Source: Flavobacteriaceae bacterium
Lineage (GTDB): Bacteria > Bacteroidota > Bacteroidia > Flavobacteriales > Flavobacteriaceae
Direction: 5' to 3'
DNA length: 32,000 nt
NCBI GenBank assembly: GCA_965224465.1
Contig: OZ245049.1
Coordinates: 3,420,001-3,452,000, forward strand
In this document: positions 11,332-31,808 of the stretch, piece after piece
Position numbering within the stretch: position 1 is the stretch's first letter
Layout: each line of letters opens with the position of its first letter
Made by a program: the position numbers and the translations under genes
Notes under the pieces: generated by a model
Databases searched by the model: none
What the model was told of the DNA's origin: nothing
What the model saw: only the letters and a program-made list of their open reading frames with translations

Positions 11332-11453
11332 TTAATTACAGTCCAAAATGACCGATATAAATAGGTTGTTTTACGTTTTATAGATGTTAAAAAACAGAAT
11401 GATAACTATGGCTATTCTTCCATTTTTAAACCATCACTTCGAATTGTATTTGC
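11332..11453 (+). repeat. MITE-like palindromic intergenic element, copy A (internally deleted, 122 bp)
   Basis: The 5' end TTAATTACAGTCCAAAATGACCGATATAAATAGGTTGTTTTACG and the 3' end AAACCATCACTTCGAATTGTATTTGC align to copies B, D and E. It lacks the segment that reads GCCTAGCT...AATTCTATTT in the full copies. It starts 1 nt after the PorP/SprF stop. Confidence 0.8.
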
Positions 11454-11564
11454 TATAAATCCTATTTTACGTATTGCCACGTTGGGGCTTATTTTGAAGA
11501 GAAATAGGCACTCTATTTATGGGGGATATACGTTTTTTAAAGAGAGTGAACACGCTTGTTCCCG

Positions 11565-12314
11565 TTATATATCATTTTTCAAACTGCTTAAAAAATCAGC
11601 TCTTCGGTTTCTGGAAACAGGTACTTTTGAGTTTTCAGAAAGGAGTACATAGCCTTCGTTTAAATACTTTTCTATATAGTTTATATTGATTAAATGTGAT
11701 TTGTGAACTAAATAAAAACCTTGGTTCTCGAGCATTTTTTTAAAATATCCAACACTGTTAGAACTCAAAAACGATTTGTTTTTTGTCAAGTGTATGTTGG
11801 TATATCCATCCGTTCCTTCACAGCGTATGATATGGTCTATTTTTATAAACTCTAGCCCATCCTGAGTTGGGACTATTATTTTTTTGTTTTGAGAACGTTG
11901 TACTCCCAAATTTTCGATCAGGTTTTTGTTTTTTTGAAGGGCTGTTTTTTCTTTGATATTTAGACTGGCATTGTGTACTGCTAAAATCAAATCATCGTTG
12001 TCTATTGGTTTTACTAAATATCCTATTGCACACTGGTTGATGGCTTCGATGGCGTAATCGTCAAAAGCAGTGGCGAAAATAATTTCGAAATTAGGGGTCT
12101 CGAACTGCTTTAATAACTCAAAACCGTTCATCTCAGGCATCGCGATATCCAAAAATAGTAGCTGTGGTTTTAATTCCTTTATCAAAGAAATACCAACAGA
12201 AGGCTTGGTGGTTTCCCCTACAATATGTAGTTCAGGACAAAAACGTTCTATCTTGTTTTTTAGAATAGCTAAGGCTTTGCGCTCATCATCAATTAAAAGT
12301 GTAGAAATTTTCAT
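11565..12314 (-). CDS. LytTR-family two-component response regulator
   Basis: N-terminal receiver domain (LLIDDE..., LLFLDIAMPEMNGFELL) and a C-terminal LytTR-type DNA-binding region (IKIDHIIRCEGTDGYTNIHL...LVHKSHLINI). Confidence 0.9.
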   Translation of the reverse strand: MKISTLLIDDERKALAILKNKIERFCPELHIVGETTKPSVGISLIKELKPQLLFLDIAMPEMNGFELLKQFETPNFEIIFATAFDDYAIEAINQCAIGYLVKPIDNDDLILAVHNASLNIKEKTALQKNKNLIENLGVQRSQNKKIIVPTQDGLEFIKIDHIIRCEGTDGYTNIHLTKNKSFLSSNSVGYFKKMLENQGFYLVHKSHLININYIEKYLNEGYVLLSENSKVPVSRNRRADFLSSLKNDI

Positions 12315-12318
12315 AGTT

Positions 12319-13152
12319 TTATTTTTTGCTTATAGAGGCGTTGTTTGTAGTATGGAACGATTGGTTAAATACTAAGCTTACTTCGGTACCGTTAAGATTT
12401 CTTGAAGACAGATCGGTAATGGAAAAATTAATATCAAAATTAGAACTGTCTTTTAGAAGGCTCAGCCGTTCTTCCAAAACCAATGATGAATGTGGTTTTC
12501 TATTTCGAGACAGTGTTTTGGTCATTTCAAGTCCTTTGTTTATTCCAATGCCATTGTCTGTAATTATTACTTTAAAATGATGCTCTTTAATTGCAATGAA
12601 TTCAATACGTACTTTTCCGATTCTTTTACTGTGAAAAATACCGTGATTAATTGCGTTCTCTACAATCGGTTGTAACAGCATAGAAGGAATGTATTCGTCC
12701 TCAGTATCTAATCTTGAATCTATACAAATGGTGTATTCCAACTGCTCTTCAAAGCGTAATTTTTCTATCTGTAAATAGTTTTCTAATAGTTTTATTTCGT
12801 CCTGTATACTTATGTACTGCTTGCGAGAATAATCAAAAAATAAACGCATTAGTTTAGAGAATTTAGACAGGTATTTTTCCGAAGTTTCAACATCATTTCG
12901 CTGGATATAGTACTGTATGGCATTCAGTGAATTGTGAATAAAATGAGGATTCATTTGCCCTCGAAGTGCATTTAGCTGGAGTTCGTGTACTTTTTTTTGA
13001 TGCTCCAATGCTTTGGTGAGTTTATCTTGGATCAATTGATTTTTACGATTGTTAAAAACGATGAATAAAAACACGAGTGCCCCTATGATCAAAAAGGTGA
13101 TACAGAACAATACTAGAAGTATGTTATTTATGTCGTTTTCTTGGGCTTGCAT
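12319..13152 (-). CDS. Sensor histidine kinase, LytS/YehU-like (His_kinase plus HATPase_c)
   Basis: One transmembrane helix, a coiled region, then LRGQMNPHFIHNSLNAI (phospho-acceptor His box of the LytS type) and an ATPase region (LLQPIVENAINHG...DNGIGI). Stop lies 4 nt upstream of the regulator's start codon. Confidence 0.85.
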   Translation of the reverse strand: MQAQENDINNILLVLFCITFLIIGALVFLFIVFNNRKNQLIQDKLTKALEHQKKVHELQLNALRGQMNPHFIHNSLNAIQYYIQRNDVETSEKYLSKFSKLMRLFFDYSRKQYISIQDEIKLLENYLQIEKLRFEEQLEYTICIDSRLDTEDEYIPSMLLQPIVENAINHGIFHSKRIGKVRIEFIAIKEHHFKVIITDNGIGINKGLEMTKTLSRNRKPHSSLVLEERLSLLKDSSNFDINFSITDLSSRNLNGTEVSLVFNQSFHTTNNASISKK

Positions 13153-13757
13153 AATAATCCGATTGTGATAAAACCATATAAAATAATGTTGAGTATCGTT
13201 AATGAAATCCGATAGGTACTGGAAGCAAATATGTTATTATATCTCTGAAGCAGCTGTAAGGGCAAAAATCCAATATGGAAAATAAGCAAGCCAGAAACAA
13301 TCCAAAATTTTCTCAGTCTTAAGTAATCAATAGCCTTGTCTTGCTTTAATAAATCTGCATAAAACAACGTTGCGCAAACTAATAATATAAGTGTACCTGC
13401 AGTTAAAGCAGGCCTCCATAACTGGGTAAAAAAAGCATCAAACATTAAAGAGTATATGATGGATGCAATAAAAAGGAGGCTTAAAAAACATGTGAGTAGC
13501 GGTCTGTTCAGGAGTTTGTAAAACCAATATAGATAAAACGAAAAAGATATTAGAATGTAAATATTATAGATAAACTGACTTTTGATATGAAAAAATACAG
13601 GAATTAGATATCCTAAAAACTCTGTAATTAGGACATAGGAAAGGAAAAATAAGAAGTTCCTTTCCGTTGTCTCTTTGTAATTTTTCCATTGAACTACCGC
13701 TACAATAAAGGCAGTAATTTGTGCGGACCAAAATAATATGTCTAATACTAGGCGCAT
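13128..13757 (-). CDS. Polytopic membrane protein (about 7 predicted TM helices), possibly the detached sensor domain of the adjacent kinase
   Basis: 209-aa ORF made almost entirely of hydrophobic helices. Its 3' end overlaps the kinase ORF start by 25 nt in another frame. Confidence 0.65.
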   Translation of the reverse strand: MRLVLDILFWSAQITAFIVAVVQWKNYKETTERNFLFFLSYVLITEFLGYLIPVFFHIKSQFIYNIYILISFSFYLYWFYKLLNRPLLTCFLSLLFIASIIYSLMFDAFFTQLWRPALTAGTLILLVCATLFYADLLKQDKAIDYLRLRKFWIVSGLLIFHIGFLPLQLLQRYNNIFASSTYRISLTILNIILYGFITIGLLCKPKKTT

Positions 13758-13758
13758 G

Positions 13759-14232
13759 TTAGTTTTCTCCGTAGATGTCTGCAGGCTCTCCAGAACTTCC
13801 GAAATTTAAGGCGTTGATGCCTGTAGAGTTTGTGTTTGTAAACGCTGTTCCTTTTGCTTCAGTTTGGTGAGTTGGTGCTAAAAACACGGTTGTTTTATAA
13901 GGGGCGTCTCCTTGTTTTTTTGCGCCTAAATACACCCGAATTCCTACGTTTTTATATCCTTTTTTCTTGGATTCCTTTTTTACATAATCAAGGTAGTTTT
14001 CTAAATTCTCTAAGTTAAAAAATACTTCCCTGTGATCTTGGAAGTGTATGTGAAGACTATCGCTTAGGTGTTTATTAATGAATCGATATTGGTTTTCTGT
14101 ATAATTTTTTTCATAGGATAGTGCAGTTTTTTGATCGATAAGTCCCGTAGGTTTTTTGTATTCCCGACAAGGAGTACAGGCGAGTATTGTACCTAATAAA
14201 GCACTGAGTAGTACTGTTGTTGATTTTTTCAT
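13759..14232 (-). CDS. Hypothetical lipoprotein, first gene of the putative four-gene sensor operon
   Basis: 157-aa ORF with a lipoprotein signal (LLSALLGTILAC). Its stop is 1 nt from the next ORF's start. Confidence 0.65.
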   Translation of the reverse strand: MKKSTTVLLSALLGTILACTPCREYKKPTGLIDQKTALSYEKNYTENQYRFINKHLSDSLHIHFQDHREVFFNLENLENYLDYVKKESKKKGYKNVGIRVYLGAKKQGDAPYKTTVFLAPTHQTEAKGTAFTNTNSTGINALNFGSSGEPADIYGEN

Positions 14233-14473
14233 AAGAGCGTTTTATTTTTGTTAAGATACTTAAAATTAATTAGTTCCTCCTGTTTTGTGCTGTAAGAGGG
14301 ATGTCTGAGTCGAAGTAATATTTCTATTGCCTCGATACAGCCAGCCTTACTAATGTATTTAAATAATAGGATAAAACTAGGCTGATAAAAGCGGGTATCA
14401 AATACACACTTCGTAAAACTAGTAGTTGAGTCTAATAGTGGTTATGTATGAGTCATGATCTGTATTTTGTAGC

Positions 14474-14549
14474 TGCCTAGTTTTATGTTCTCTACGTGGA
14501 TCATTTAGTTTTTAAAGTTCTTTTTCTAAACCGTCACTTGGGAATTTAA
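14474..14549 (+). repeat. MITE-like element, copy F (3' half only, degenerate)
   Basis: TTCTAAACCGTCACTTGGGAATTTAATTA matches the 3' arm of copies D and E. The upstream part (TGCCTAG...) resembles the internal GCCTAGCT segment only loosely. Confidence 0.55.
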
Positions 14550-14737
14550 TTATAAATCAACACTTTATTTTCAAAGATACAAAACACATCGCATTGCACA
14601 GAAATTATGCACCTACTTAAGAATACTTAAAGTCTGTCTAGTTAAGTTGTCTTAAAAGTTAAGAGGCGATGTGTTCTGAGGAAGAGAAATCCCTTAATCC
14701 TTTTCGCTTTTGGCTAGATGTAAACCCAAAAAATAAG

Positions 14738-14745
14738 TACATTTG
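14738..14745 (+). promoter_or_regulatory. Candidate -7 promoter box (TAnnTTTG) upstream of map
   Basis: TACATTTG lies 18 nt before the ATG at 14763. A TTTG at 14709-14712 is 25 nt upstream, slightly longer than the usual spacing. Confidence 0.35.
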
Positions 14746-14762
14746 CATAAAAAGTACAGTCC

Positions 14763-15587
14763 ATGAGCGGAATTATAATAAAATCAGCAGAACAAATCGA
14801 AATCATGCGCGAAAGTGCATTGATGGTTTCTAAAACTTTAGGAATTATTGCCAAAGAGGTAAAACCAGGAGTTACGACTTTGTTTCTAGATAAAATGGCA
14901 GAGGAATACATTCGTGATAATGGTGGGATACCAGGTTTTTTAGGATTGTATGACTTTCCAAATACTTTGTGTATGAGCCCAAATGCTCAAGTGGTACACG
15001 GAATTCCAAATGATACGCCTTTGGTAGAAGGTGATATTATCTCTATTGATTGTGGAGTCCTTAAAAATGGATATTACGGGGATCATGCCTATACTTTTGA
15101 AGTAGGAGAGGTTGCGCCAGAAACCAAAAAATTAATTGAAGTAACCAAGCAGAGTTTGTACGAAGGAATTCGTCAATTTAAAGCAGGGAACAGAGTAGGA
15201 GATGTTGGTTTTGCTATTCAGAATTATTGTGAAAATCATGGCTATGGGATTGTACGTGAATTGGTAGGGCATGGATTGGGAATGGAAATGCACGAGGAAC
15301 CTGAAATGCCAAATTACGGTCGTAGAGGACGTGGGAAAAAATTTGTTGAAGGAATGGTGGTCGCTATCGAACCAATGGTGAATATGGGGACACATCGCAT
15401 CAATCAATTAAAAGATGGTTGGACTATTTTGACCAAAGATAATAAACCAAGTGTGCATTTCGAGCACGATGTGGCAATTGTAAATGGAAAACCAGAATTA
15501 TTGTCTACGTTTAAATATGTAGACGAGGCTTTGGGAACTGTGACCAATATCGAAGATGAATTTAGAGTAGATTCTTCAAAAATATAA
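14763..15587 (+). CDS. map: Type I methionine aminopeptidase
   Basis: 274-aa ORF with the family's metal-ligand context: VVHGIPN, GDIISIDCG, YYGDHAYTF, GHGLGMEMHEEP, VVAIEPM. Confidence 0.95.
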   Translation: MSGIIIKSAEQIEIMRESALMVSKTLGIIAKEVKPGVTTLFLDKMAEEYIRDNGGIPGFLGLYDFPNTLCMSPNAQVVHGIPNDTPLVEGDIISIDCGVLKNGYYGDHAYTFEVGEVAPETKKLIEVTKQSLYEGIRQFKAGNRVGDVGFAIQNYCENHGYGIVRELVGHGLGMEMHEEPEMPNYGRRGRGKKFVEGMVVAIEPMVNMGTHRINQLKDGWTILTKDNKPSVHFEHDVAIVNGKPELLSTFKYVDEALGTVTNIEDEFRVDSSKI

Positions 15588-16348
15588 TGTCAATTTTTAA
15601 GTTCATACTAAATACCATTCCAAGACCTTATTTGTTAAAAATGAGTTACTTGGCAAGTCCCTTGTTGGCATTGTTTTATAAAGGGGATAAATTTACAGAT
15701 CCTATTGATGGGCGTAAATTCCGTAAATTATTGCCTTATGGTTATGGGAAGCAACGTGCAAATGCACTGGCTCCAGGCTCTCTGTCTTTAGAGCGGCATC
15801 GATTGATTTGGTTGTATTTAAAAAATGAGACTGACTTTTTTACTGCGCCTAAAAAAATGCTTCACATTGCGCCAGAACAGTGTTTTTTAGGAAGGTTTAA
15901 AAAACTTAAAAATTTAGAATATACCACAGCAGATTTGATTTCTCCATTGGCAGATGTCAAGGCAGATGTATGTGATTTGCCTTTTGAAGACAATACTTTT
16001 GATGTGGTGTTTTGCAACCATGTATTGGAGCATGTTACCGATGATTCTAAGGCAATGTCCGAATTATACCGTGTGTTAAAACCGGGTGGTTTGGGGATAT
16101 TTCAAATTCCTCAAGAAATAGAAAGGGCGGTTACATACGAAGATGCTACAATTACAAGTCCAGAGGAGCGTAGCAAACATTTTGGGCAATACGATCATGT
16201 ACGTGTGTACGGAATGGATTATTTTGACAAGCTTCGTTCCGTTGGTTTTAAAGTGAAAGCATTAAACTATGCAAAGACTTTAGAGGCTAATAAAGTAAGA
16301 GAATACTGCTTAATGCCTCAGGAGATTTTACCAGTTTGTAGCAAGTAA
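15587..16348 (+). CDS. Class I SAM-dependent methyltransferase
   Basis: Its start overlaps the map stop (TAATG). Methyltransf_11-like motifs: DLPFEDNTFDVVFCNHVLEHV and LYRVLKPGG. Confidence 0.8.
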   Translation: MSIFKFILNTIPRPYLLKMSYLASPLLALFYKGDKFTDPIDGRKFRKLLPYGYGKQRANALAPGSLSLERHRLIWLYLKNETDFFTAPKKMLHIAPEQCFLGRFKKLKNLEYTTADLISPLADVKADVCDLPFEDNTFDVVFCNHVLEHVTDDSKAMSELYRVLKPGGLGIFQIPQEIERAVTYEDATITSPEERSKHFGQYDHVRVYGMDYFDKLRSVGFKVKALNYAKTLEANKVREYCLMPQEILPVCSK

Positions 16349-16394
16349 GGTTTCTTCTTTTTTTACCTACTTTTACCTTTTTAATAAACCAAAA

Positions 16395-18173
16395 ATGCAG
16401 GACAGTCCTATTTTATATTATACCCATAGATTAGCAGGGTTTAACAAACAATTAAAAGCAGTAAAGCGTTTGCTGTATATTTCTTCCTTTTTTAGGTTTG
16501 GAGTGTTTTTAGCAACTTCCTTTGCGGTTTATATCACATTTAATCAGTGGAAAGTGAGTTTGTTTTGTGCAGTTCTAGGCATCGCTGGTTTTGTGTTTTT
16601 ATTGTTACGCCATTTTAAATTGGCGTATAATCGGGATAAAATAAAAGTGCTTATTGCGATGAATCAACTGGAAATAGATGTTGTAAATGGTGATATATCT
16701 AAACTAGCTACAGGGGAAGAATTTGTAGATCCAAGTCATTTTTATAGTTATGATATTGATTTATTCGGTGACAATTCTTTGTTTCAGTATATCAATAGAA
16801 CAGCTACTCAGGAAGGAAAAAACAGCTTGGCTCATCTTTTTACTTCCAATGCTATTAAAGGTATTGTTCAAAAACAAGAACTACTTGCCGAGTTGGCTGA
16901 TAAGAAAGATTGGCGTCAGAATTTTAGTGCCATCGCAGCATTGATTACAACAAACACAAAGATTGATGTTTTAAATAATTGGCTTAAAAATTACAGCGCT
17001 TTTGTACCTCAATTGATGCGTTATTTGCCAAGTGTTTTTTCTGTAATTTCTATTGCTTTAACAGTGTTGTTTTTTATGGATCTTATGCCAAACCTTATTT
17101 TTTATGGATGGTTTTTTCTAGGTTTGGGAATTAGTGGTATCTATGTTTCACGTGTCAATTCCTTGTCGAATCACACAAGTACAGTAAGTGCTGCTTTTAG
17201 TGAATATTCAAAATTAATTGCTTGTGTAGAGTCTGCAACATTTGTGAGTGAAGGACTTCGAAATCAACAAGAAAAACTAATTAAAGAACAGGTGAAAGCC
17301 TCTGAAATTGTTGGAGAGTTTTCTAAATTGTTAGCTGCTTTGGACAGTAGGAATAATATATTTATAGCCATGGTGCTCAATGGGTTTTTTCTGTGGGATT
17401 TAAAACAATCGTTTCTTATAGAAGCATGGATTAAAAAGTACCATTCAAAAGTGACAGACTGGTTTGAGGTGATCTCTTTTTTTGATGCTCATAATAGTCT
17501 CGCAAACTATGTGTTTAATCATCCATCGTTTTGTACTGCTACAATTGATGAGCATGCTTCCACTGTATTAAATGCAACGCAATTAGGACATCCTTTACTG
17601 AAACTGAAAGGGCGTGTTGATAACGATTTCTCGATAGATGCAGCTCAGTTTTTTATTGTTACAGGGGCAAATATGGCAGGGAAAAGTACGTTTTTACGGA
17701 CTGTTTCTCTAAGTATTGTATTGTGTAATATGGGCTTGCCTGTTTGTGCGACAAAAGCGGTGTACTCACCAATTAAATTAATCACTAGCATGCGTACCAG
17801 TGATTCCTTAGCGGAAGGATCTTCGTATTTTTTCGCAGAATTACAACGCTTAAAAACCATTGTAGATGCAGTGAAAACAGACACCTATTTTATTATTTTA
17901 GACGAAATTTTAAAAGGAACCAATAGCCACGATAAAGCTTTGGGCTCTAAGAAAATAGTGCGTCAGTTTGCTTCTCAAAAGGCTTGTGGGATTATTGCGA
18001 CCCACGATTTGAGCTTGTGTGAGTTGGAAGCGGAAATAAGTGAAGTTGAAAATTACTTTTTTGATGCCGAAATTATCAATGATGAGCTATATTTTGGTTA
18101 TCAATTAAAAAAAGGTGTTTGTAGCAATATGAATGCTTCATTTTTATTGAAGAAAATGGAGATTGTGAGTTAG
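16395..18173 (+). CDS. Membrane-anchored MutS-related protein (MutS domain V ATPase paralog)
   Basis: N-terminal hydrophobic helices. C-terminal Walker A VTGANMAGKSTFLRTV, then SYFFAELQRL, Walker B FIILDEILKGTN and ATHD. Confidence 0.85.
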   Translation: MQDSPILYYTHRLAGFNKQLKAVKRLLYISSFFRFGVFLATSFAVYITFNQWKVSLFCAVLGIAGFVFLLLRHFKLAYNRDKIKVLIAMNQLEIDVVNGDISKLATGEEFVDPSHFYSYDIDLFGDNSLFQYINRTATQEGKNSLAHLFTSNAIKGIVQKQELLAELADKKDWRQNFSAIAALITTNTKIDVLNNWLKNYSAFVPQLMRYLPSVFSVISIALTVLFFMDLMPNLIFYGWFFLGLGISGIYVSRVNSLSNHTSTVSAAFSEYSKLIACVESATFVSEGLRNQQEKLIKEQVKASEIVGEFSKLLAALDSRNNIFIAMVLNGFFLWDLKQSFLIEAWIKKYHSKVTDWFEVISFFDAHNSLANYVFNHPSFCTATIDEHASTVLNATQLGHPLLKLKGRVDNDFSIDAAQFFIVTGANMAGKSTFLRTVSLSIVLCNMGLPVCATKAVYSPIKLITSMRTSDSLAEGSSYFFAELQRLKTIVDAVKTDTYFIILDEILKGTNSHDKALGSKKIVRQFASQKACGIIATHDLSLCELEAEISEVENYFFDAEIINDELYFGYQLKKGVCSNMNASFLLKKMEIVS

Positions 18174-18216
18174 TAGTTGCTCCTGTCTGCACCCCGTTGG
18201 GCTGTGATCAATTATA

Positions 18217-18371
18217 CCAATTACCATCCAAAATAACCGATATAAATAGTTTGTTTTAGGTGCTAGCGTTGTTAAAAAATAGAACAATAGCTAAGGCTAT
18301 CCTTAGATTTCTCGCCTAGCTAGAACAAAAAATAATTCTATTTCTAAAACGTCCTTTGGAAATGTATTTGG
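18217..18371 (+). repeat. MITE-like palindromic intergenic element, copy B (full length, 155 bp)
   Basis: TA-flanked (18215-18216 and 18372-18373). Imperfect terminal inverted repeats: CCAATTACCATCCAAAATAACCG and CGTCCTTTGGAAATGTATTTGG. Central hairpin CTAAGG-CTAT-CCTTAG at 18291-18306. Lies 43 nt after the MutS-like stop. Confidence 0.85.
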
Positions 18372-18488
18372 TATTGGATGTAAGTTGAGTAATATAATAT
18401 TTACGCCTAGCCTTTAGAACAACCAACATTTTCTCTTTGATATCCCTTTATGATCCAGTATCTTTAATCCCATCAAACGAAATTAAAA

Positions 18489-20407: not shown

Positions 20408-20454
20408 TGTGGGTTTGTAAAGGTACTTCTTTTACCATTCACCATTTTCCAACA

Positions 20455-22047: not shown

Positions 22048-22062
22048 TCAATAATTTTAGGA

Positions 22063-22070
22063 CAAAAATA
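22063..22070 (-). promoter_or_regulatory. Candidate -7 promoter box for the Ig-like lipoprotein gene
   Basis: Minus strand reads TATTTTTG, 16 nt upstream of the ATG at 22047. Confidence 0.35.
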
Positions 22071-22649
22071 ACAACATATTTCAACAAAAAACACGTTTCA
22101 TGGAATATTTGACTGCTTTGCTGAAAAAAAAGATAAAATCTTCTTTGGTCTCTCTAGTTTTAAGTGATTTTTATCTTGTTCTGGTCCTCATGTTCTGTTT
22201 GTATAGGAGTGCTATATCTGATAGGCTTTTTTATTTTTAACAAGCATTTCTTAAAGAAGAGAGGGGGCGTATATCTACCATAAACGTTCTGTATTTCGTT
22301 ATATTCATATTTTATTCGCCCCTATTGTTTTTATGGGGGTTCGTGATGTGCTTCTCTAAATAAACGAACCTAAAAAGCAGACTTTTAGAATGTGTTTTTT
22401 AAGGCGAAAAATTTTTCTTAAAAACCATATCCAAAACTGCGCATTGCTCCTAAGATCACACCAAGGTTTTTCTGATTTTGAACGTAGATACGGTATAAAA
22501 GACGGTTTTCCATACTATATTATTGATGTGATTAGCATTATTTTTCAATACCTTTTGTAGCTGGCTGTACAGTATCGTAGGCATGAGTTTTTAATAAAAC
22601 CTCAATCCTCAATTAGGAGCATTTGAAATCCGTGCCATTGGTTATACTA

Positions 22650-22827
22650 GCAATTACCATCCAAAATAAACGATGTGAAATAGTTTGTTTTAAGTTCTAG
22701 CGTTGTTGAAAATAGCACAATAGAAGGCTGTCCTTCCATTTTCCGCCTAGCTATAATGCCAGTTAAAATCCAAAATGACCTATATAAACAATTCTATTTC
22801 TAAAACGTCACTTGGGAATGTATTTGG
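22650..22827 (+). repeat. MITE-like element, copy C (composite, 178 bp)
   Basis: It has a normal 5' arm and central part. At ~22759-22790 a second 5' arm (CCAGTTAAAATCCAAAATGACCTATATAAA) is joined directly to the 3' arm. TA flanks at 22648-22649 and 22828-22829. Confidence 0.8.
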
Positions 22828-22869
22828 TATTATTCTAGCCTCCTTTTATTTTTAGATTTCATGTTACAT

Positions 22870-23043
22870 TTATAAGTCTGTAATTGCTCCGCAAACAAGT
22901 CCAATAGCAAATCCTCCAATTGGACCTATTGCTAGAGTAAAAGCAAGTGCAACAAATCCACAAGCAACTTTTAAATCAAAGTTTCCTCTTTGTAGGTCTT
23001 GTGTTTTTGCAATTTCTAATACTTTAATAATTTTCTTTTTCAT
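22870..23043 (-). CDS. 57-aa small hydrophobic glycine-rich peptide (class II bacteriocin-like, or a small membrane peptide)
   Basis: ATG at 23043, TAA at 22872-22870, below the ORF-track length cutoff. Translation: MKKKIIKVLEIAKTQDLQRGNFDLKVACGFVALAFTLAIGPIGGFAIGLVCGAITDL. It has a charged N-terminus followed by a GxxxG-rich hydrophobic tail. A candidate -7 box TATTTTTG lies on the minus strand at 23095-23102. Confidence 0.45.
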   Translation of the reverse strand: MKKKIIKVLEIAKTQDLQRGNFDLKVACGFVALAFTLAIGPIGGFAIGLVCGAITDL

Positions 23044-23567
23044 AATTAATTTCCCCTAATTCATTTAAAGACCTATTAGATTGGTGCATTTTCACAAAAA
23101 TATTGTTACACAACGCACACTAGTGCATCGTGTTATTTTTAATGTTAAGGGGAAATATTGTTTAGCAATTTAAAACAATGCCGTAAACATATTTTTATTT
23201 TTTATTATTCGCAAGTATTTTCTTAAGTATTTTTAGAAAAAAGAGGTGGTTTTGTGATATATGCAATTGTTTTAAGTGATCTGCTGTGATATTCGTAACG
23301 GTTATTGTATCTGTATTTGATTTTGCGGGGTGTTTTGAATAAAAACAACTTGTAGATTTAACTTTTATGGTTTTTTTACTAAATAAGGAATGGAGCTAAG
23401 CGGAATTAGTAGACGTAATATGTTGAATTAATCTGTAGCATATCGTTGTTAATCCCACCAGTGGATTTAATTCTTCGATGCTTGCATCTAAATGATTAAA
23501 GTTTTTTATTTTTCATGCCTCGTGGGCTTGCCCCAAGGTTATTGACTCCCTTATGGAGGGTTTAAGA

Positions 23568-23722
23568 CCAATTACAATCCAAAATGACCTATATAAATAG
23601 GTTGTTTTACGTTTTAGCGTTGTTAAAAAACAGAATGATAGCCAAGACTATCCATCTATTTTTAGCCTTTTTCAAATAAAACATAATTCTATTTCTAAAC
23701 CGTCACTTGGGAATGTAGTTGG
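23568..23722 (+). repeat. MITE-like palindromic intergenic element, copy D (full length, 155 bp)
   Basis: Starts CCAATTACAATCCAAAATGACCTATATAAATAGG and ends CCGTCACTTGGGAATGTAGTTGG. Same length as copies B and E. TA on the 3' flank, GA on the 5' flank. Confidence 0.85.
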
Positions 23723-23828
23723 TACAATTCCCTGCGGATCTGTCTCGAGACAGGGGATAGTCTTTCGGAAGCATGCCTCGTTCCCTTGGGTCGAGGCTGT
23801 TGTTTTATAAAAGTAGGAATAGCTTGCC

Positions 23829-24359
23829 TTATGATTCTTGTACCTTCTGTTTCCTTGCAGCTGTTTTTTGTTTGTAATGTTTCTTGGTAGCGATATACAA
23901 AGTCTTGTCTAGTGTGCAAAACACAGCACCTTTGTCCGAATGGATATGGGTGTTTAATTTCAAGTTCATTTCTCCATTTGCTGCCACTTCTTTTTTTATG
24001 GTATCTAGTATCTCATCATTTAACGTAAAACTACAATAGGCATTTTCATGCGCAGGTTTTTTATAGGTGATGGTGGCTGCTTTGTCCCAAACCACGTATT
24101 CTTTTCCTAGAATCCACATTAGCTGTATCATAAAAATAGGGTCGGTTGCCGAGAATAATGAACCTCCAAAAATGCTCCCCACAAAGTTTCTGTTTCTGTA
24201 ATTGATAGGGATTTTAATTCGAACTTCTAATAAGTCGTCTGTTACATTTGTGATTTTAGCGGTTGTACTTCGGTACATAGGGGAGAGGTTAAAGCCCCAT
24301 TTAAATAAGGAAGCCTTGGATATGAATTTCAGTAAGAATGTGGTTATTTTTTGATACAT
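23829..24359 (-). CDS. DUF4442-like hotdog-fold protein (YiiD C-terminal-like putative thioesterase)
   Basis: 176-aa ORF with NLSPMYRSTTAKITNV, RNFVGSIFGGSLFSATDPIFMIQLM and YVVWDKAATITYKKP, matching the pattern I recall for this family. Confidence 0.7.
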   Translation of the reverse strand: MYQKITTFLLKFISKASLFKWGFNLSPMYRSTTAKITNVTDDLLEVRIKIPINYRNRNFVGSIFGGSLFSATDPIFMIQLMWILGKEYVVWDKAATITYKKPAHENAYCSFTLNDEILDTIKKEVAANGEMNLKLNTHIHSDKGAVFCTLDKTLYIATKKHYKQKTAARKQKVQES

Positions 24360-24496
24360 GGTGTAAAGTTATTGGTTTTAAACGGCGCAATTACACCCCC
24401 TAAATTGTTCCTTTCGTGGTGTTTGAAAGGGGGATTGTTCTTGCTTTTTTATGTTAAATGAGTTGGTTTTTTATTGATTCAGTTTTTCACCATGCG

Positions 24497-26131: not shown

Positions 26132-26286
26132 TTTTGTTATTTTTTTTAAATATACAAAAATGATTGAAACTAAAGTGATTTAGGGGAATCGTATAGGGAA
26201 TATCACTGTTATTTAATGTGTTTGAAATAAAAAAGACAAACCGCTGTCACTCTATAGAGAGTCAGTCACCTATTCGCTATTTATTT

Positions 26287-26667
26287 TTATAATACAGCAA
26301 TACGTTCCACAAATTTTTCCAGTAAGAATTTTATTTTCTCATGGATGTGTTCAGAGGTTAATTTTTTGTTGCCCATGTACACAAACATTACAATATAGCG
26401 TTGTTCAATTTTATCTGTAAAATAGGGTTTGTTTAAGCGATACCCCTCGCGCATTAACCGTTTTAAATGATTGCGGTCTACCGCTAATTTAAATCCACGT
26501 TTGGGCACTACAAAACCTACCTGCAAAGGAGATTCCTCGCAATAATGATCTATAGGATGGTAAATCATTCGAATAGGAAATGATTTCACGGATTTTCCTT
26601 CTGCAAATAAAACTTGAATCAGTTTTCTGCTCTTTAATTTCTCTTTTGTTGACAATGTAAACCTCAC
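26287..26667 (-). CDS. rnpA: Ribonuclease P protein component
   Basis: Small basic ORF with VGFVVPKRGFKLAVDRNHLKRLMREGYRL. The listed start is GTG at 26667. The true start is uncertain because a TTG lies 4 codons downstream. Confidence 0.85.
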   Translation of the reverse strand: MRFTLSTKEKLKSRKLIQVLFAEGKSVKSFPIRMIYHPIDHYCEESPLQVGFVVPKRGFKLAVDRNHLKRLMREGYRLNKPYFTDKIEQRYIVMFVYMGNKKLTSEHIHEKIKFLLEKFVERIAVL

Positions 26668-26671
26668 GCAA

Positions 26672-26679
26672 CAAAAGTA
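26672..26679 (-). promoter_or_regulatory. Candidate -7 promoter box for rnpA
   Basis: Minus strand reads TACTTTTG just upstream of the GTG/TTG start region, which implies a very short leader. Confidence 0.3.
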
Positions 26680-26701
26680 CTGAATAAATGAATTAAATTT
26701 T

Positions 26702-26709
26702 TATATTTG
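26702..26709 (+). promoter_or_regulatory. Candidate -7 promoter box for the glutaryl-CoA dehydrogenase gene
   Basis: TATATTTG lies 22 nt upstream of the ATG at 26732, in the 64-bp divergent intergenic region shared with rnpA. Confidence 0.35.
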
Positions 26710-26731
26710 GATAAACAATATTTAATATTCT

Positions 26732-27910
26732 ATGTCACAAGATCTATTTCAAGCACCTGACTATTTTCAGTTAGACGATTTGCTTTCCGAAGAACATAAA
26801 TTAGTGCGTGATGCCGCACGAGAATGGGTGAAACGTGATGTTTCTCCAATTATTGAAGACGCTGCGCAAAAGGCAGAATTTCCCAAATCTATTATTAAAG
26901 GCTTGGCGGAAATTGGTGCATTTGGTCCTTATATTCCAGAAGAATACGGCGGAGCAGGCCTTGATCAGATATCCTATGGACTTATTATGCAAGAAATAGA
27001 GCGTGGAGATTCTGGTGTGCGTTCTACTGCATCGGTACAATCATCTTTGGTGATGTACCCTATTTGGAAATATGGAACCGAAGCACAAAAACAAAAATTC
27101 TTACCAAAACTTGCCAGTGGTGAATTTATGGGGTGTTTTGGATTGACAGAACCAGACCATGGATCTAATCCAAGTGGGATGGTGACGCATATAAAAGATA
27201 TGGGCGATCATTTTTTACTAAACGGTGCTAAAATGTGGATTTCTAATGCTCCTTTTGCCGATGTAGCCGTCGTATGGGCAAAAAATGAAGCTGGAAGAAT
27301 TAAAGGCTTACTTGTAGAACGTGGAATGGAAGGGTTTACGACTCCCGAAACCCATAATAAATGGTCCTTGAGAACTTCATCTACAGGAGAATTGATATTT
27401 GACAATGTAAAAATTCCTAAAGAAAATATACTGACAGAAAAAGATGGCTTGGGCGCTCCGCTTGGTTGCTTAGATTCTGCTAGGTACGGAATTGCATGGG
27501 GTGCTATAGGTGCCGCCATGGATTGTTACGACACGGCATTGCGCTATGCAAAAGAGCGCATACAGTTTGGGAAACCCATTGCTGGATTCCAACTTCAACA
27601 AAAGAAATTGGCAGAAATGATTACAGAAATTACCAAAGCACAATTGTTGACGTGGCGTTTAGGGGTGTTGAAAAATGAAGACAGAGCTACAACTGCACAA
27701 ATTTCTATGTGTAAACGAAACAATGTAGACATGGCATTGACTATTGCTAGAGAAGCAAGACAGGTGTTAGGAGCTATGGGAATTACAGGGGAATATTCGA
27801 TCATGCGTCATATGATGAATCTAGAATCTGTAATTACCTACGAAGGAACCCACGATATCCATTTGTTGATTACAGGATTTGATATTACAGGAATTCCTGC
27901 GTTTAAGTAG
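26732..27910 (+). CDS. gcdH: Glutaryl-CoA dehydrogenase (acyl-CoA dehydrogenase family)
   Basis: 392-aa ORF with GCFGLTEPDHGSNPSGM and the C-terminal YEGTHDIHLLITGFDITGIPAF, which closely resembles the conserved GCDH C-terminus. Confidence 0.85.
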   Translation: MSQDLFQAPDYFQLDDLLSEEHKLVRDAAREWVKRDVSPIIEDAAQKAEFPKSIIKGLAEIGAFGPYIPEEYGGAGLDQISYGLIMQEIERGDSGVRSTASVQSSLVMYPIWKYGTEAQKQKFLPKLASGEFMGCFGLTEPDHGSNPSGMVTHIKDMGDHFLLNGAKMWISNAPFADVAVVWAKNEAGRIKGLLVERGMEGFTTPETHNKWSLRTSSTGELIFDNVKIPKENILTEKDGLGAPLGCLDSARYGIAWGAIGAAMDCYDTALRYAKERIQFGKPIAGFQLQQKKLAEMITEITKAQLLTWRLGVLKNEDRATTAQISMCKRNNVDMALTIAREARQVLGAMGITGEYSIMRHMMNLESVITYEGTHDIHLLITGFDITGIPAFK

Positions 27911-27947
27911 TTTGAACGAAGGAATTAGCGAAAAGAAAGGCATAGTA

Positions 27948-28102
27948 CCAGTTAAAATCCAAGATAACCGATATAAATAGTTTATTTTACGTTCTAGGGT
28001 TGTTAAAAAATAGAACGATAGCTAAGGCTATCCTTTTATTTTTTGCCTAACTAAAATAAAAAACAACTCCATTTCTAAACCGTTATTTGGAAATTTAATT
28101 GG
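27948..28102 (+). repeat. MITE-like palindromic intergenic element, copy E (full length, 155 bp, best-preserved TIRs)
   Basis: TA flanks at 27946-27947 and 28103-28104. 5' end CCAGTTAAAATCCAAGATAACCG versus the reverse complement of the 3' end CCAATTAAATTTCCAAATAACGG (about 19 of 24 aligned positions). Central hairpin GATAGC-TAAG-GCTATC. Confidence 0.88.
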
Positions 28103-28146
28103 TATAACAACTGATTTTTTGAAGCTCTTTTTCTTATAATGATAAC

Positions 28147-28185
28147 AAAACACCCATTACAAATGATGTTATGGGTGTTTTTTTG
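28147..28185. terminator. Bidirectional rho-independent terminator between convergent genes
   Basis: Stem AACACCCAT (28149-28157) pairs with ATGGGTGTT (28171-28179) around a 13-nt loop. It has an A-run upstream and a T-run downstream, so a U-tract is available on both strands. Confidence 0.7.
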
Positions 28186-28196
28186 TGCTGTTTTTA

Positions 28197-28664
28197 CTAT
28201 AAGGAAATATCAAAAGATTTACCTAAAGTTGCTATATCCTTACTCGTTAGTTTTGTTTTGCAAGCTAGAATTATAAATTCGTCGCTGGTTTTGATACGAA
28301 CTATCAATTCCCGTATTATTTCGTCCTTGTCTTCTTGGAAATACACATCTACACGGTCTTTTTTGTCGGAGACACGTACCAATTGCTCATAGTCATTACG
28401 ACTTACAAAACGCGAAAAGCTCTTCGCTGTTTTAGTATCGTTTTCATTAAAAACCATCAATCTAAAATGACTCGCCTTTTTTAATAAAGGGCCCAGTAAT
28501 TTCTTTTCTTCTTTAGGAATAAACATACGTCCTAAAGTTCCAGAAACACCTATCGAGAATGCTGCATCTGCTTTGTGTTTTTTGTAAAATGATTGGAAGT
28601 CTGAAGAGGATTTACAGGAAATCATCATCAAAATGATCCCTATCAATGCGATGTATTTTTTCAT
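28197..28664 (-). CDS. DUF4252-like lipoprotein
   Basis: 155-aa ORF with a lipoprotein signal (LIGIILMMISC). Overall pattern: FYKKHK...IGVSG...RLMVFNEND...ELIVRIKTSDEFIILACKTKLTSKDI. Confidence 0.6.
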   Translation of the reverse strand: MKKYIALIGIILMMISCKSSSDFQSFYKKHKADAAFSIGVSGTLGRMFIPKEEKKLLGPLLKKASHFRLMVFNENDTKTAKSFSRFVSRNDYEQLVRVSDKKDRVDVYFQEDKDEIIRELIVRIKTSDEFIILACKTKLTSKDIATLGKSFDISL

Positions 28665-29046
28665 GTTTTTGAGTTTACATTTTTAGGTCTTGTTCTATAA
28701 AGACGAATGGAGATTGGAATTGTTACAAAGGGGGAAGTGTGTTCCCTTTTGTAGCAGTATTGATGTGTGAGAGTTGAACTCTTTGTTGTTTTGAATTGAT
28801 ATCAAATGTATTTCTAGACACCTGTTTATATCTGTTATTATGGATTGTTGGCTGGGATTAGATCCTAGTAGAAAAATTGCATGCGCTATGTCTGCTGGGG
28901 ATAATGCGTTTTTAGGGTGCTATATATCTGGTTTTAAAGTGGTATGGATCGCTTGTGAATGTATGTTTCAAAAAAAAATCATATATTACCGGAAATAAAA
29001 AACAAACTGGTCGGTTTGTTAGCTATGAACTTAATACCTTTTTAAT

Positions 29047-31665
29047 ATGAAAAAAATACTACACGTATGTTTTATGTTATTTACTTTTTTTTCGTTTTCA
29101 CAAACGACGTATACTCTTGTAAATAACGAAGGAATTCACAAATTAGCAAATAGTTGCTATGAACTGAAATACAATGCCAATGGCCTTTTAGGGAAAACCT
29201 TTAGGGTTGATGGTGCTCCTGGGTTGTTTTATTTAAAGCCAGCAGGCTTAGGAGAATTTATTTTTTATAATGATAATAAACGAATGTTGGCAACCTATGG
29301 AAATCGTGTTGTTTTGACGGATGAATTATCAGATGATGTAATTTGGAATGTGGTTAGAAATAAAGAGAGTCGCATTGTACTACAACATAAAAAGACGGGA
29401 GAATATTTGTATGAATCGTATTTTATATCTCCACATTGGTTCCCGACGCTTAAGCTAACTAGAAGAATTAAAAAAGCAATTAATATAGGTTATGCTTCTT
29501 GTCATTCTTGCAACCAATTTCCAGAAGCGACTTTAAATCTTACAGGAAATATTATAAAAACGGAGTTTAGTGACGGTTCTGTTTATGGAATGGCAGATGT
29601 GCATAACCATGGAGCCTCACATAATATGGTACATGGTCTTGTTAATGCGGGTAAAATGTTTTCTCCTTTGGGAATTCAAGACGCCTTAAAAGATTGCGCA
29701 ACTACACATGGGTATGGTGGGCATGTAGATCCTTTGGGAGCACTTTCTAGATCGGGAGGCGATGGACAGCATGCGATTGATCTTGAGTCTGTTCTTGGGG
29801 AGATGGCTAAGGGGCATGACACAAGCGGGTTTCCAACATTTAAAGACTGGCCAAATTTTAATGAGTCAACGCATCAAATGAATTATTACAAATGGTTAGA
29901 TAGAGCACGCTTAGGAGGTCTTCGCTTAATGACAGTTTATGCTGTAGATAATAATGCGGCTTCTATTGTTATGAAACTTGTATTTGATAAAACGGGCCCT
30001 TATCTCTATCCTAGAGAAGGAACACCAAATCCTAATGATTCACAGTTTAGTGGGACAGAAGTATCTAATGTGAGTATAAAATTCATGTATGATTTACAAG
30101 ATTATATTGATGCTCAAGAAGGGGGCGTTGGTAAAGGTTGGATGCGTATTGTTAAAAGTCCAGAAGAGGCAAGGAAAGTGATAAAGCAAGGAAAACTAGC
30201 AATTATTCTAGGCTTAGAACTCGCTGATTTAATAGATTGTATTGATGGTGCTAAAAATAGACCTAACTGTACAAAAGAATATATTGAAAATAGAATTCAG
30301 TTTCATTATGACCAAGGAATAAGAGCTATATTTCCTACGCTACATTACAACAACGATTTTGCAGGAAGTAATAAAGGAGGTTTTGTATATGAATTTGGAC
30401 AAGCTATTTTTAATGGAGAATTGGATCACTATGAACTTTGTGAAAAAGAAGGAAAATTTGGAGCTAAAAGACCTGCTTTTGATTTACAAGCCTATAAAGA
30501 ATTGTGTGATTTTGGGAAAGGTGTTATAGGAGGGATTGTGAGCGCATTAACACCTATTGATTTGTCTAAAATACCAGAATTACCTGAAATAACAGACGAA
30601 CTTCAATATTATTGTAATTCTGTTGGATTAAAACCTAAAGGAAAAATACTTATGAATACCTTAATGAGTAAGGGGATTCTGATAGATATAGATCATGTAA
30701 GTAAAAAGGCAGTGAAAGAGATTAAAGAAGTGTTAGATCCGTATGGGTACCCATATATAGTGACTCATAATGATGATGTAGAGGTTGTAGGTGAAGCCGT
30801 TTTTTCCAGGGGAGGTTTGCTCGCTCAAATAACTACAAAGCCTTCTGAAAATGGTTCTAAATGTAAGCACCCAACCTCGGAGGATGCTTTTATAAACAAC
30901 AAGCTTATTTCGGATGCCTCTTTGAAATATAAAAATATTGAAGCAACGACTTTAAGTACTGACTTTTTTGGTAGTTTGAATGCATTAGGACCTCGGTTTA
31001 ATAATGCGATCAATGAGTGTAAAAAATCACAGGGGAATAAAATACACTATCCTTTTACTTCTTTTGATGGAGGTATTGTTTTTGAGAAACAACAATCAGG
31101 TGATAGAACCTTTGATTTTAATACCGATGGATTTGCGCATTATGGGATGTTGCCAGATTTAATAGAAGATTTTAAAGCATTGGGTAAAACCGATAAGGAG
31201 ATAGAAACATGGTATAGAGGTGCTGAAGCATATTTGAGGACTTGGGAAAATGCAATTTCCGCACAAAAAAGATACAATTCTAAAAATAATACAACAAGTA
31301 TTACTTATGTAAAGCCTGCTGCAGTGAAGGAAACACTTATTGTGCCAGTACCTGAGACGTCAATGGCTACTGAGCCAAAAGAAAAAGTTGCAAGTAATTT
31401 GTTACATCCTTTAGATACAGAGATTGTTCTAAAATTATATCCTACTTTGGTAGACACGTATTTTAATGTTAAATCGGAAGAGCCATATAAGTTAACAGTT
31501 TCTTTGTATAGTGTAAAAGGGAAACGTGTGTATGAACAAACATTTAATCGAGGAGAGGAAATTAATGTAACCAATCTTTCTCATTTAGCTAAAGGTGTAT
31601 ACATTGTTAATATTAGAGATGATAAAGGGGCTTTAAATAGGTCTTATAGAATTATAAAAAAATAA
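29047..31665 (+). CDS. T9SS-secreted multidomain protein with an M19 (renal-dipeptidase)-like metallohydrolase core
   Basis: Signal peptide and an N-terminal ~130-aa domain of unknown type. M19-like motifs: DVHNHG, GLELADLI, YDQGIRAIFPTLHYNNDFAGS and GILIDIDHVSKKAV. The C-terminal ~80 aa are a type-A T9SS sorting domain (LYPTLVDTYFNV...LYSVKGKRVYEQ...LAKGVYIVNIRDD). Confidence 0.8.
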   Translation: MKKILHVCFMLFTFFSFSQTTYTLVNNEGIHKLANSCYELKYNANGLLGKTFRVDGAPGLFYLKPAGLGEFIFYNDNKRMLATYGNRVVLTDELSDDVIWNVVRNKESRIVLQHKKTGEYLYESYFISPHWFPTLKLTRRIKKAINIGYASCHSCNQFPEATLNLTGNIIKTEFSDGSVYGMADVHNHGASHNMVHGLVNAGKMFSPLGIQDALKDCATTHGYGGHVDPLGALSRSGGDGQHAIDLESVLGEMAKGHDTSGFPTFKDWPNFNESTHQMNYYKWLDRARLGGLRLMTVYAVDNNAASIVMKLVFDKTGPYLYPREGTPNPNDSQFSGTEVSNVSIKFMYDLQDYIDAQEGGVGKGWMRIVKSPEEARKVIKQGKLAIILGLELADLIDCIDGAKNRPNCTKEYIENRIQFHYDQGIRAIFPTLHYNNDFAGSNKGGFVYEFGQAIFNGELDHYELCEKEGKFGAKRPAFDLQAYKELCDFGKGVIGGIVSALTPIDLSKIPELPEITDELQYYCNSVGLKPKGKILMNTLMSKGILIDIDHVSKKAVKEIKEVLDPYGYPYIVTHNDDVEVVGEAVFSRGGLLAQITTKPSENGSKCKHPTSEDAFINNKLISDASLKYKNIEATTLSTDFFGSLNALGPRFNNAINECKKSQGNKIHYPFTSFDGGIVFEKQQSGDRTFDFNTDGFAHYGMLPDLIEDFKALGKTDKEIETWYRGAEAYLRTWENAISAQKRYNSKNNTTSITYVKPAAVKETLIVPVPETSMATEPKEKVASNLLHPLDTEIVLKLYPTLVDTYFNVKSEEPYKLTVSLYSVKGKRVYEQTFNRGEEINVTNLSHLAKGVYIVNIRDDKGALNRSYRIIKK

Positions 31666-31713
31666 CAGTATGTTTTGTTAATTCTAGGTGGGTATCAAAG
31701 GATATTAATAATA

Positions 31714-31808
31714 CCCAATACATTTCCACGTGATGGTTTATAATGGAATTATTTTTTGTTTTAGCTTGGCGAAAAACAAACTATTTATATTTATTGTTTT
31801 GTAATAGG
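31714..31808 (-). repeat. MITE-like element, copy G (reverse orientation, internally deleted, 95 bp)
   Basis: The reverse complement aligns to the family's 5' arm (ATATAAATAGTTTGTTTTT) and 3' arm (AATTCCATTATAAACCATCACGTGGAAATGTATTGGG), with the central hairpin missing. TA flanks at 31712-31713 and 31809-31810. Confidence 0.75.

Follow-up and report, generated by a model that had tools for sequence, protein, structure and literature searches.

A lineage-restricted, TA-flanked MITE family, probably mobilised in trans, in the intergenic DNA of a marine Flavobacteriaceae chromosome

The 32-kb stretch of DNA analysed here (the window) is part of the 5.24-Mb chromosome of a marine, free-living member of the Flavobacteriaceae. 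Its genes include a PorP/SprF ORF, a MutS-related gene, a DUF4442 gene on the minus strand, an acyl-CoA dehydrogenase gene and a gene for a T9SS-tailed protein, and the only transposase that it encodes belongs to the IS256 family (Transposase_mut). Dispersed between the genes is a repeat for which the original prediction listed at least seven copies, three of them (B, D and E) exactly 155 bp long. An nhmmer profile built from these three retrieves all of the reported copies from the window, with B, D and E matching the full profile (positions 1-155) at E-values of about 1e-46 to 1e-49, and an independent repeat grouping clusters the same copies (families D5, D6, D8 and D9). The copies, with their settings, are:

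11332..11453, plus strand: copy A, internally deleted, 122 bp, with a degenerate 5′ terminus (TT for CC) and TA after the 3′ end; profile match at 11334-11428, plus strand (positions 3-97, nhmmer E 1.6e-22), the 3′ arm being aligned to 11453; starts 1 nt past the stop codon of the PorP/SprF ORF.
14516..14550 (match 14515-14550), plus strand: fragment F, a 3′-arm remnant (profile ~117-152, nhmmer E 4.7e-5) in a divergent promoter region.
18217..18371, plus strand: copy B, full-length, 155 bp, TA on both sides (nhmmer 1-155, E 1.6e-48); 43 nt past the stop codon of the MutS-related gene.
18404..18422, plus strand: a likely remnant, short and resembling the inside of copy B (CGCCTAGC..TAGAACAA).
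22650..22758 (match 22651-22756), plus strand: copy C1, a 5′ fragment (profile 2-109, E 3.1e-21) with TA on its left.
22759..22827, plus strand: copy C2, a mini-copy of 69 bp made of profile positions 1-30 followed directly by 115-155, TA on its right.
23568..23722, plus strand: copy D, full-length, 155 bp, flanked by GA (left) and TA (right) (nhmmer 1-155, E 1.1e-46); 106 nt past the 3′ end of the DUF4442 gene, which is on the minus strand.
27948..28102, plus strand: copy E, full-length, 155 bp, TA on both sides (nhmmer E 3.8e-46); between the acyl-CoA dehydrogenase stop codon (37 nt away) and the conserved terminator hairpin of that gene.
31714..31808, minus strand: copy G, internally deleted, 95 bp, TA on both sides (nhmmer positions 92-155, E 4.5e-10); 48 nt past the stop codon of the gene for the T9SS-tailed protein.

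In total, three copies are exactly 155 bp long, three more are composite or internally deleted, and two are short fragments, which gives 7-8 copies and fragments over 20.5 kb of the window. The profile matches bear out that A and G are internally deleted and that G is reversed. Copy C, which had been described as a composite, resolves into the C1 fragment adjoining the C2 mini-copy; the two halves of the latter match at E 0.002 (positions 1-30) and E 4.1e-8 (115-155), and C2 is also found by a TIR probe with two mismatches. Fragment F had been described as a 76-nt 3′ half, of which the 3′-arm match stands but the length does not, the fragment spanning only ~35-45 nt. Similarly, the fragment suspected at ~18403-18428 does match the interior of B at 18404-18422 (two pattern matches against none expected), although the pattern was chosen post hoc and the nhmmer profile gives no match there.

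All copies of the 155-bp repeat are intergenic, even though intergenic DNA makes up only 17.5% of the window, and the repeats account for 16% of this intergenic DNA. As predicted, A, B, E and G begin no more than about 50 nt past a stop codon, at the distances listed above. Divergence between copies is 13-19%, which may mean that the family is old and no longer active. There is a weak subfamily signal, with a few diagnostic positions common to A and D and others common to E and C2.

The element is A+T-rich and noncoding, and it is bounded by TIRs of ~23-33 bp, its 5′ end reading 5′-CCAATTACAATCCAAAATGACC... and its 3′ arm ...GGTCACTTGGGAATGTATTTGG. In the consensus, 19 of the 23 terminal positions are complementary and the pairing extends to ~33 nt with one indel, in agreement with the inverted arms originally described; a 22-nt TIR probe found four matches, against 0.00 expected in shuffled sequence. 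Every full copy also matches the profile on the reverse strand (E 5e-8 to 5e-5), meaning that the whole element is an imperfect palindrome, and its predicted folds are more stable than those of shuffled sequence (MFE z-scores of -2.7 to -5.2). The centre had been regarded as a hairpin that varies between copies; instead, it is one homologous stretch in which two palindromes overlap (GATAGC/GCTATC and CTAAGG/CCTTAG) rather than a covarying stem. Its length is below the ~300 bp that bounds bacterial MITEs in general, and coding capacity is nil, with stop codons in all six frames and a longest internal ORF of ~31-50 aa, and none of the six ORFs that overlap elements is present in the protein collection.

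Reading the sequence confirmed that B, C, E and G have TA on both sides, whereas D has GA/TA and A has TA at its 3′ end only, its 5′ end being degenerate. Across six complete copies (five from the window and one from a relative, described below), TA is found at 11 of 12 ends, against a background intergenic TA frequency of 0.10 (P ~1e-10). The base 3′ of the right-hand TA is T in all five copies with TA on both sides, and A-TA-T is a frequent context. No longer direct repeats flank the window copies whose sequences were read. The flanking TA may be a duplicated target, as we infer from the sequence.

The decisive new evidence for mobility is insertion polymorphism at two orthologous sites, which emerged from the comparison of presence and absence in relatives that had been proposed at the outset. 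At the first site, a related metagenome-assembled genome, NORP150, carries a 155-bp copy with TA on both sides (L001, 6519-6673), one neighbour being an MBL-rhodanese gene and the other a rhodanese gene. Five congeners (L013, L014, L015, L022 and L023) have the same intergenic slot without the element and with conserved flanks that align on both sides, and the borders of the alignment gap lie no more than 2 bp from the ends of the element. At the second site, the intergenic region that holds copy E measures 286 bp here and 127-135 bp in four congeners that lack the element (L024-L027), in good keeping with the arithmetic of the slot, 286 - (155 + 2) = 129. All four congeners keep the terminator hairpin that lies beyond copy E, and the conserved flanks again align on both sides. 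In addition, the slots of B, C, D and F are element-free in the syntenic sequences L003 and L004 (~80% amino-acid identity). Because the relatives used are only ~80-97% identical in protein, the empty sites are not base-precise and too diverged to display a single TA; for copy B in particular, the spacer is too diverged, at ~80% protein identity, for its empty site to be aligned at base level.

Beyond the window, a peptide search with a translated copy returned just one MITE-derived ORF, the 39-aa predicted ORF P0368, which represents a further copy elsewhere on the same chromosome and is identical to no copy in the window. An exact-pattern scan of 185,579 species genomes, among which the source genome is not included, found two loci only, in two related NORP MAGs, and a metagenome scan yielded one real partial copy (L008) alongside five chance matches. 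Viral contigs, scanned by pattern, and plasmids and phages, searched by blastn, gave no match. In ~265 kb of congener DNA picked regardless of the element there was a single fragment, compared with the 7-8 in 20.5 kb of the window. By these searches, the family appears to be limited to a small clade in which this genome stands next to Flavobacteriaceae MAGs from the North Pond subseafloor.

The search for an enzyme that could move the element was confined to the window and its relatives. As originally stated, the window contains no matching transposase, the IRs of its IS256-family element (TGTAATTTAAACTCTGTCTG) being unrelated to the element TIRs. Neither the window nor ~300 kb of relatives yielded an autonomous IS with matching ends; in the latter, L008 was the one isolated matching TIR, and no IS630-family gene occurs in any sequence examined (window and relatives). 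L008 was considered as one end of an autonomous element and rejected, as it is followed by a glycoside-hydrolase-like gene and not by a transposase.

Taken together, we consider it probable (roughly 0.82) that the repeat is a MITE restricted to this lineage and moved in trans, a TA-targeting transposase of the IS630/Tc1-mariner type being the best candidate for the mover. Bacterial MITEs are shorter than 200 bp and A+T-rich, carry TIRs with TA at their termini and fold into long stem-loops (PMC2229807). The repeat here is an ordinary miniature transposon, new as a family but not as a kind. A transposase encoded elsewhere in the genome would bind both ends of the element and excise it, and re-insertion at a TA dinucleotide, often within A-TA-T, would leave a TA on each side. 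Insertion at TA, with duplication of the dinucleotide, is documented for IS630/Tc1-mariner elements (PMC2170065), and since TA insertion is typical of DDE transposases of this type, with which the A-TA-T context also agrees, we infer that such an enzyme is the likeliest partner. Copies A, G and C2 would be internal-deletion derivatives, and copies would survive only between genes, often just past stop codons, because insertions are tolerated there. Any effects on transcripts, be it an extra 3′ UTR stem-loop or the weak, bidirectional terminator-like centre, would be by-products and not a selected function. The original proposal of a non-autonomous, Correia-like MITE served in trans by a TA-targeting enzyme is supported by the TIRs, the TA flanks, the deletion derivatives, the intergenic location and the two-site polymorphism, the duplication of TA being presumed.

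The same TA dinucleotides could be read differently, namely as part of the element's own termini or as flanks of a target that is not duplicated as TA, in which case the mover would not be of the IS630 type but, for example, an enzyme from an IS5-family subgroup that makes 2-3-bp duplications, or a DDE transposase of no established class. This reading, which we consider distinctly improbable, draws on the L001 site, where all three informative empty sites align best when both TAs are taken out along with the element (a score of 142 vs 136-138 for L013), so that the TA could belong to the element or the site could have carried (TA)2 beforehand. It also gains from the lack of an IS630-type gene or a matching autonomous IS in the sequences examined. 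Yet, the difference in score comes down to a single 2-nt gap in a spacer that is AT-rich and diverged, no copy is flanked by a longer direct repeat, and strict two-sided TA is a hallmark of IS630/Tc1-mariner insertion (PMC2170065); the GA/TA of copy D, too, is what would be expected of a mutated flank rather than of a mutated functional terminus. Hardly credible, in turn, is a REP/BIME-like or other palindromic repeat spread by a RAYT (Y1) or by recombination, or an integron attC-like site, attractive as an intergenic palindrome often located just past stop codons might make it. A 155-bp unit with 23-33-bp TIRs and TA flanks is a poor fit to REPs of 20-40 nt with a GTAG head, the GTTRRRY/RYYYAAC cores of attC sites are missing from the element ends, the neighbours are syntenic housekeeping genes in both orientations rather than cassettes, and neither a RAYT nor an integrase is encoded in the window. 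On anatomy, the attC and REP readings were rejected, as was that of a PATE (IS200/IS605).

In a further reading, the hairpin itself would be what selection maintains, making the repeat a structured noncoding RNA or cis-regulatory family (a 3′ UTR stabiliser, terminator or sRNA) whose repetitive nature is secondary. Position and structure are what speak for it: five of seven copies lie 1-106 nt past the 3′ end of a gene, the folds are stable as noted above, and in B, C and E the central hairpin is followed by a T-run, producing a weak terminator-like site (on both strands in E). Against it, the RNAalifold covariation term is +2.31, with three compensatory and ~17 broken pairs, and the copies do not share one orientation with respect to the gene upstream, the sense being the same in A, B and E and opposite in G and D. 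Moreover, the element is missing from the orthologous slots of congeners despite conserved genes and native terminators, and the upstream gene's own terminator is still present beyond copy E. The exclusion check on Flavo-1 and Rfam that had been called for was run and found no Rfam match at gathering thresholds in the whole window, nor, around copy B, a Flavo-1 match even at E values as high as 10. None of the copies contains the Bacteroidetes -7 promoter box TAnnTTTG, and a sigma-70 scan, which is uninformative for this phylum, stayed below shuffle expectation. Lacking both covariation and conservation at orthologous loci, the suggested co-option as a 3′ UTR hairpin, terminator or sRNA is unsupported, and we regard an RNA family as very unlikely.

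If the density in the window held genome-wide, the chromosome would contain hundreds to more than 1000 copies, amounting to ~4% of its DNA. Copies C and D occupy the exact place where four of four congeners examined have a ResB/CcsA gene for cytochrome-c biogenesis together with adjacent genes; here these are replaced by 1.8 kb of noncoding DNA holding both copies. That an orphan TA-targeting MITE has been amplified specifically in this chromosome, and may also be reshaping its gene order, is a tentative and, on balance, unlikely extension. In practical terms, such repeats should be masked and named in annotation so as not to be mistaken for regulatory RNAs; they can disrupt assemblies and supply 3′ UTRs with extra stem-loops, and a family restricted to a small clade could serve as a strain-typing or lineage marker. 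Finding the transposase would add another bacterial IS630-MITE pair, while the family opens no new mechanistic question.

Similar elements occur in distant hosts. Stowaway-type plant MITEs, which depend on Tc1/mariner transposases, likewise target TA, are palindromic over their full length and leave short, deletion-prone copies near genes, but they are eukaryotic, have unrelated TIR sequences and reach copy numbers that are orders of magnitude higher. To our knowledge, the TIRs described here also have no sequence similarity to those of Correia elements. In anatomy, Correia/NEMIS elements of Neisseria resemble the present family in being noncoding, with TIRs of ~24-26 bp and TA at both termini, in having a ~155-bp full form next to internally deleted shorter ones (Correia elements occur as ~155 and ~107 bp forms), in their intergenic location, often by gene ends, in the long stem-loops that their transcripts would form and in that a cognate transposase is known for neither (PMC2229807). 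They differ in host phylum and in their outward promoter box, which is not found in the element here. RUP of Streptococcus pneumoniae is also small and A+T-rich with TIRs and TA insertion, and trans-mobilisation by an IS630-family enzyme is proposed for both (PMC2229807); RUP, however, is linked to IS630-Spn1 (PMC2229807) and is 107 bp long, its TIRs matching a known IS in the same genome, whereas no parent IS was found here in the window or its relatives. Within the Bacteroidota, finally, MITECca01 of Cardinium is similarly lineage-specific, mostly intergenic and absent from sister strains, although it is larger (~240 bp), has an identified IS982-family parent, ISCca4, and resides in a host-restricted endosymbiont (PMC9769881).

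The reading of the 155-bp, TA-flanked element as a MITE is supported by its terminal inverted repeats (TIRs), its TA flanks, its deletion derivatives and the empty orthologous sites found in congeners. That the window harbours a dense family of such repeats, as the original prediction held, was confirmed by a repeat search that clusters the copies independently of the profile, by a 22-nt left-end probe (4 matches in the window vs 0 in 100 shuffles) and by a profile of the three 155-bp copies. This profile covered B, D and E over their whole length (E-values 1e-46 to 1e-49) and also recovered A, C in two pieces, G and a short 3′ fragment, F:

11332-11453, copy A, left end decayed
18217-18371, copy B, full length
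22650-22827, copy C, composite
23568-23722, copy D, full length
27948-28102, copy E, full length
31714-31808, minus strand, copy G

The predicted full length of B, D and E thus stood, while F spans only ~35-45 nt and is shorter than the 3′ half claimed for it. C is composite as proposed—more precisely, a 5′ fragment followed directly by a 69-bp mini-copy—and the supposedly variable central hairpin is actually one homologous stretch carrying two overlapping palindromes.

Aligned with the copy of a related MAG (locus L001 of NORP150, 6519-6673), B, D and E occupy exactly 155 columns with 0 indels and 81-86% pairwise identity. The TIRs are complementary at 19/23 consensus positions and extend to ~33 nt with one indel. 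Since the profile also matches the opposite strand of every full copy, the 155 bp form an imperfect palindrome as a whole; their folds are more stable than those of shuffled sequence by 2.7-5.2 SD. TA flanks B, C, E and G on either side, in line with the prediction, and the MAG copy as well; D is flanked by GA/TA. In all, TA occurs at 11/12 ends (P ~1e-10, given 10% TA in intergenic DNA). The copies are intergenic without exception, even though intergenic DNA accounts for only 17.5% of the window, and make up 16% of its intergenic bases.

The window has a G+C content of 34.6% and encodes type IX secretion markers (PorP/SprF, CHU_C, Por_Secre_tail) alongside ordinary housekeeping genes. The closest relatives of its proteins are from Flavobacteriaceae MAGs of the TULL18/NORP data set (79-97% protein identity). 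Relatives from named genera are far more distant: the MutS-related protein shares ~59-61% identity with that of Kordia, and the acyl-CoA dehydrogenase ~91-92% with those of Lutibacter and Aureivirga.

When one genome per species was scanned with a degenerate pattern, only 2 loci matched, both in NORP MAGs: the L001 copy, a perfect 155 bp with TA/TA flanks, and a variant in NORP167 (L002) that has a ~30-nt internal insertion and whose right end is decayed. The L001 copy separates an MBL-rhodanese gene from a rhodanese gene. Five congeners (87-91% protein identity) keep both genes at this site, together with the terminator hairpin and pre-start sequence, and lack the element, the gap coinciding with its ends within 2 bp. 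Likewise, the spacer holding copy E, between the acyl-CoA dehydrogenase and DUF4252 genes, measures 286 bp in the window and 127-135 bp in four congeners (96-97% protein identity), near the value of 286 minus 157 bp, with conserved blocks on both sides that include a shared terminator hairpin. Two of these four loci are from MAGs in which a copy is present at another site. Presence and absence at orthologous loci, on which the original prediction was to be refuted, therefore differ as expected of a mobile element. The syntenic regions L003 and L004 are free of copies at the sites of B, C, D and F. The copy B slot, the MutS-aminotransferase spacer, instead holds an HTH gene in L004 (11848-12472) and L006 (2070-2369), paired in L004 with an adjoining Gp49-type toxin-antitoxin-like gene; the spacer is a hotspot for different insertions.

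Around 265 kb of congener DNA, fetched regardless of the element, contained one 3′ fragment only (L013), and the window carries 7-8 copies and fragments in 20.5 kb, an apparent expansion in the source genome relative to its relatives. The L013 fragment (16569-16612), part of the 3′ arm, runs into the end of a Nitro_FeMo-Co family gene, whose stop codon it provides. A phmmer search with a translated copy against 1.84 billion representative proteins gave one match, a 39-aa ORF on the same 5.24-Mb chromosome as the window; as it differs from every window copy, at least one further copy lies outside the window. Divergence among copies of one genome is 13-19%, and the MAG copy stands no further from the window copies than these do from one another. 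The insertions are nonetheless lineage-specific, a pattern that fits several rounds of amplification, in each lineage, from source copies that are conserved.

TIRs, strict TA flanks, an A-TA-T preference and deletion derivatives most likely represent an IS630/Tc1-mariner-type cut-and-paste profile. Enzymes of this type bind the inverted repeats and join the 3′ ends at staggered points of a TA target, which becomes duplicated (PMC2170065); the transposase that moves the element would act likewise. We infer both this mobiliser and the TA duplication; the L001-site alignments score marginally better when both TAs are removed along with the element, for which a (TA)2 target is one possible cause and a TA that is part of the element another. 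As predicted, the window holds no matching transposase, its sole transposase being of the IS256 family with inverted repeats unrelated to the element, and ~300 kb of relatives yielded neither an isolated TIR of matching sequence nor a transposase. L008, considered as the end of an autonomous element, proved to be a partial variant copy adjoining a glycoside-hydrolase-like gene. L002 (4791-4954) and L008 (2155-2190), from different relatives, have in common an extra ~30-nt internal segment (..CAAATC.GGTTGAG.ACA..TTTTTTT) directly after the left TIR; this variant may be a longer subfamily or nearer the parental IS. Other features of the window are:

~1796-3200, IS256-family insertion sequence, Transposase_mut, 410 aa, inverted repeats TGTAATTTAAACTCTGTCTG / CAGACAGAGTTGAGTTTACA
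4238-10426, putative T9SS-secreted adhesin, 2062 aa, FG-GAP and HYR repeats, CHU_C tail
10433-11330, PorP/SprF gene split into overlapping ORFs 10433-10825 and 10755-11330 (Pfam positions 2-93 and 98-258 of 273)
22870-23043, minus strand, 57-aa ORF between C and D, charged N-terminus, glycine-rich hydrophobic C-terminus (MKKKIIKVLEIAKTQDLQRGNFDLKVACGFVALAFTLAIGPIGGFAIGLVCGAITDL)

The IS256-family element and an ORF at 3384-3971 are flanked by a 41-nt direct repeat (98% identical; 1699-1739, 3962-4002). The exact IS256-family transposase protein is known from 6 contigs, of which the longest measures 5,241,564 bp, and close variants within the same 90% cluster occur on the same chromosome. The adhesin gene includes five nearly identical 480-nt tandem repeats (7492-9711), and the split PorP/SprF gene is either a pseudogene with a frameshift or the product of a sequencing error.

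Copies C and D lie in a 1.8-kb stretch (22048-23828) with no long ORF. The same slot, between the Big_5 and DUF4442 genes, contains a 1067-aa ResB/CcsA fusion gene in 4/4 congeners examined (L003, L024, L025, L026), accompanied by a GNAT gene in three of them and by a 144-aa gene in two of those three. tblastn detected no remnant in the window. The location of C and D within the replaced stretch makes a MITE-associated deletion or rearrangement possible. The 57-aa ORF had no Pfam match and could encode a small membrane or bacteriocin-like peptide.

Co-option of the element as a 3′ UTR hairpin, terminator or sRNA, also suggested originally, is unsupported, given the lack of an Rfam match and of covariation, the mixed orientation relative to the upstream gene and the retention of native terminators. 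Rfam gave no match over the window at gathering thresholds, and Flavo-1, which was to be excluded, none around copy B even at E up to 10. For the four full copies, RNAalifold returned an unfavourable, positive covariation term (+2.31) and 3 compensatory changes vs ~17 broken pairs; the palindrome is decaying rather than maintained. No Bacteroidetes -7 box (TAnnTTTG) occurs within or beside any copy. The central hairpin and T-run do give a weak terminator-like score in B, C and E. Copy E, however, was inserted upstream of a conserved native terminator much stronger than its own hairpin, and the L001 copy sits downstream of one, so that termination is at most a side effect.

The least ordinary aspects of the element are its apparent expansion, its missing partner transposase and the placement of C and D within the ResB/CcsA replacement stretch. 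Searches of Rfam, plasmids, phages and viral contigs gave no match to it. Its profile of TIRs, TA and deletion derivatives is shared by Correia, RUP and bacterial MITEs in general (PMC2229807), it shows the generic MITE properties of short non-coding length, TIRs, dispersed copies with deletion derivatives and filled versus empty sites, and it operates in like manner to Correia/NEMIS, RUP and Stowaway. In large censuses the MITEs of Bacteroidota, mostly specific to one genus, number in the tens of thousands (PMC11602168), and Cardinium has a lineage-specific MITE described earlier (PMC9769881); the element thus adds to an already known kind.
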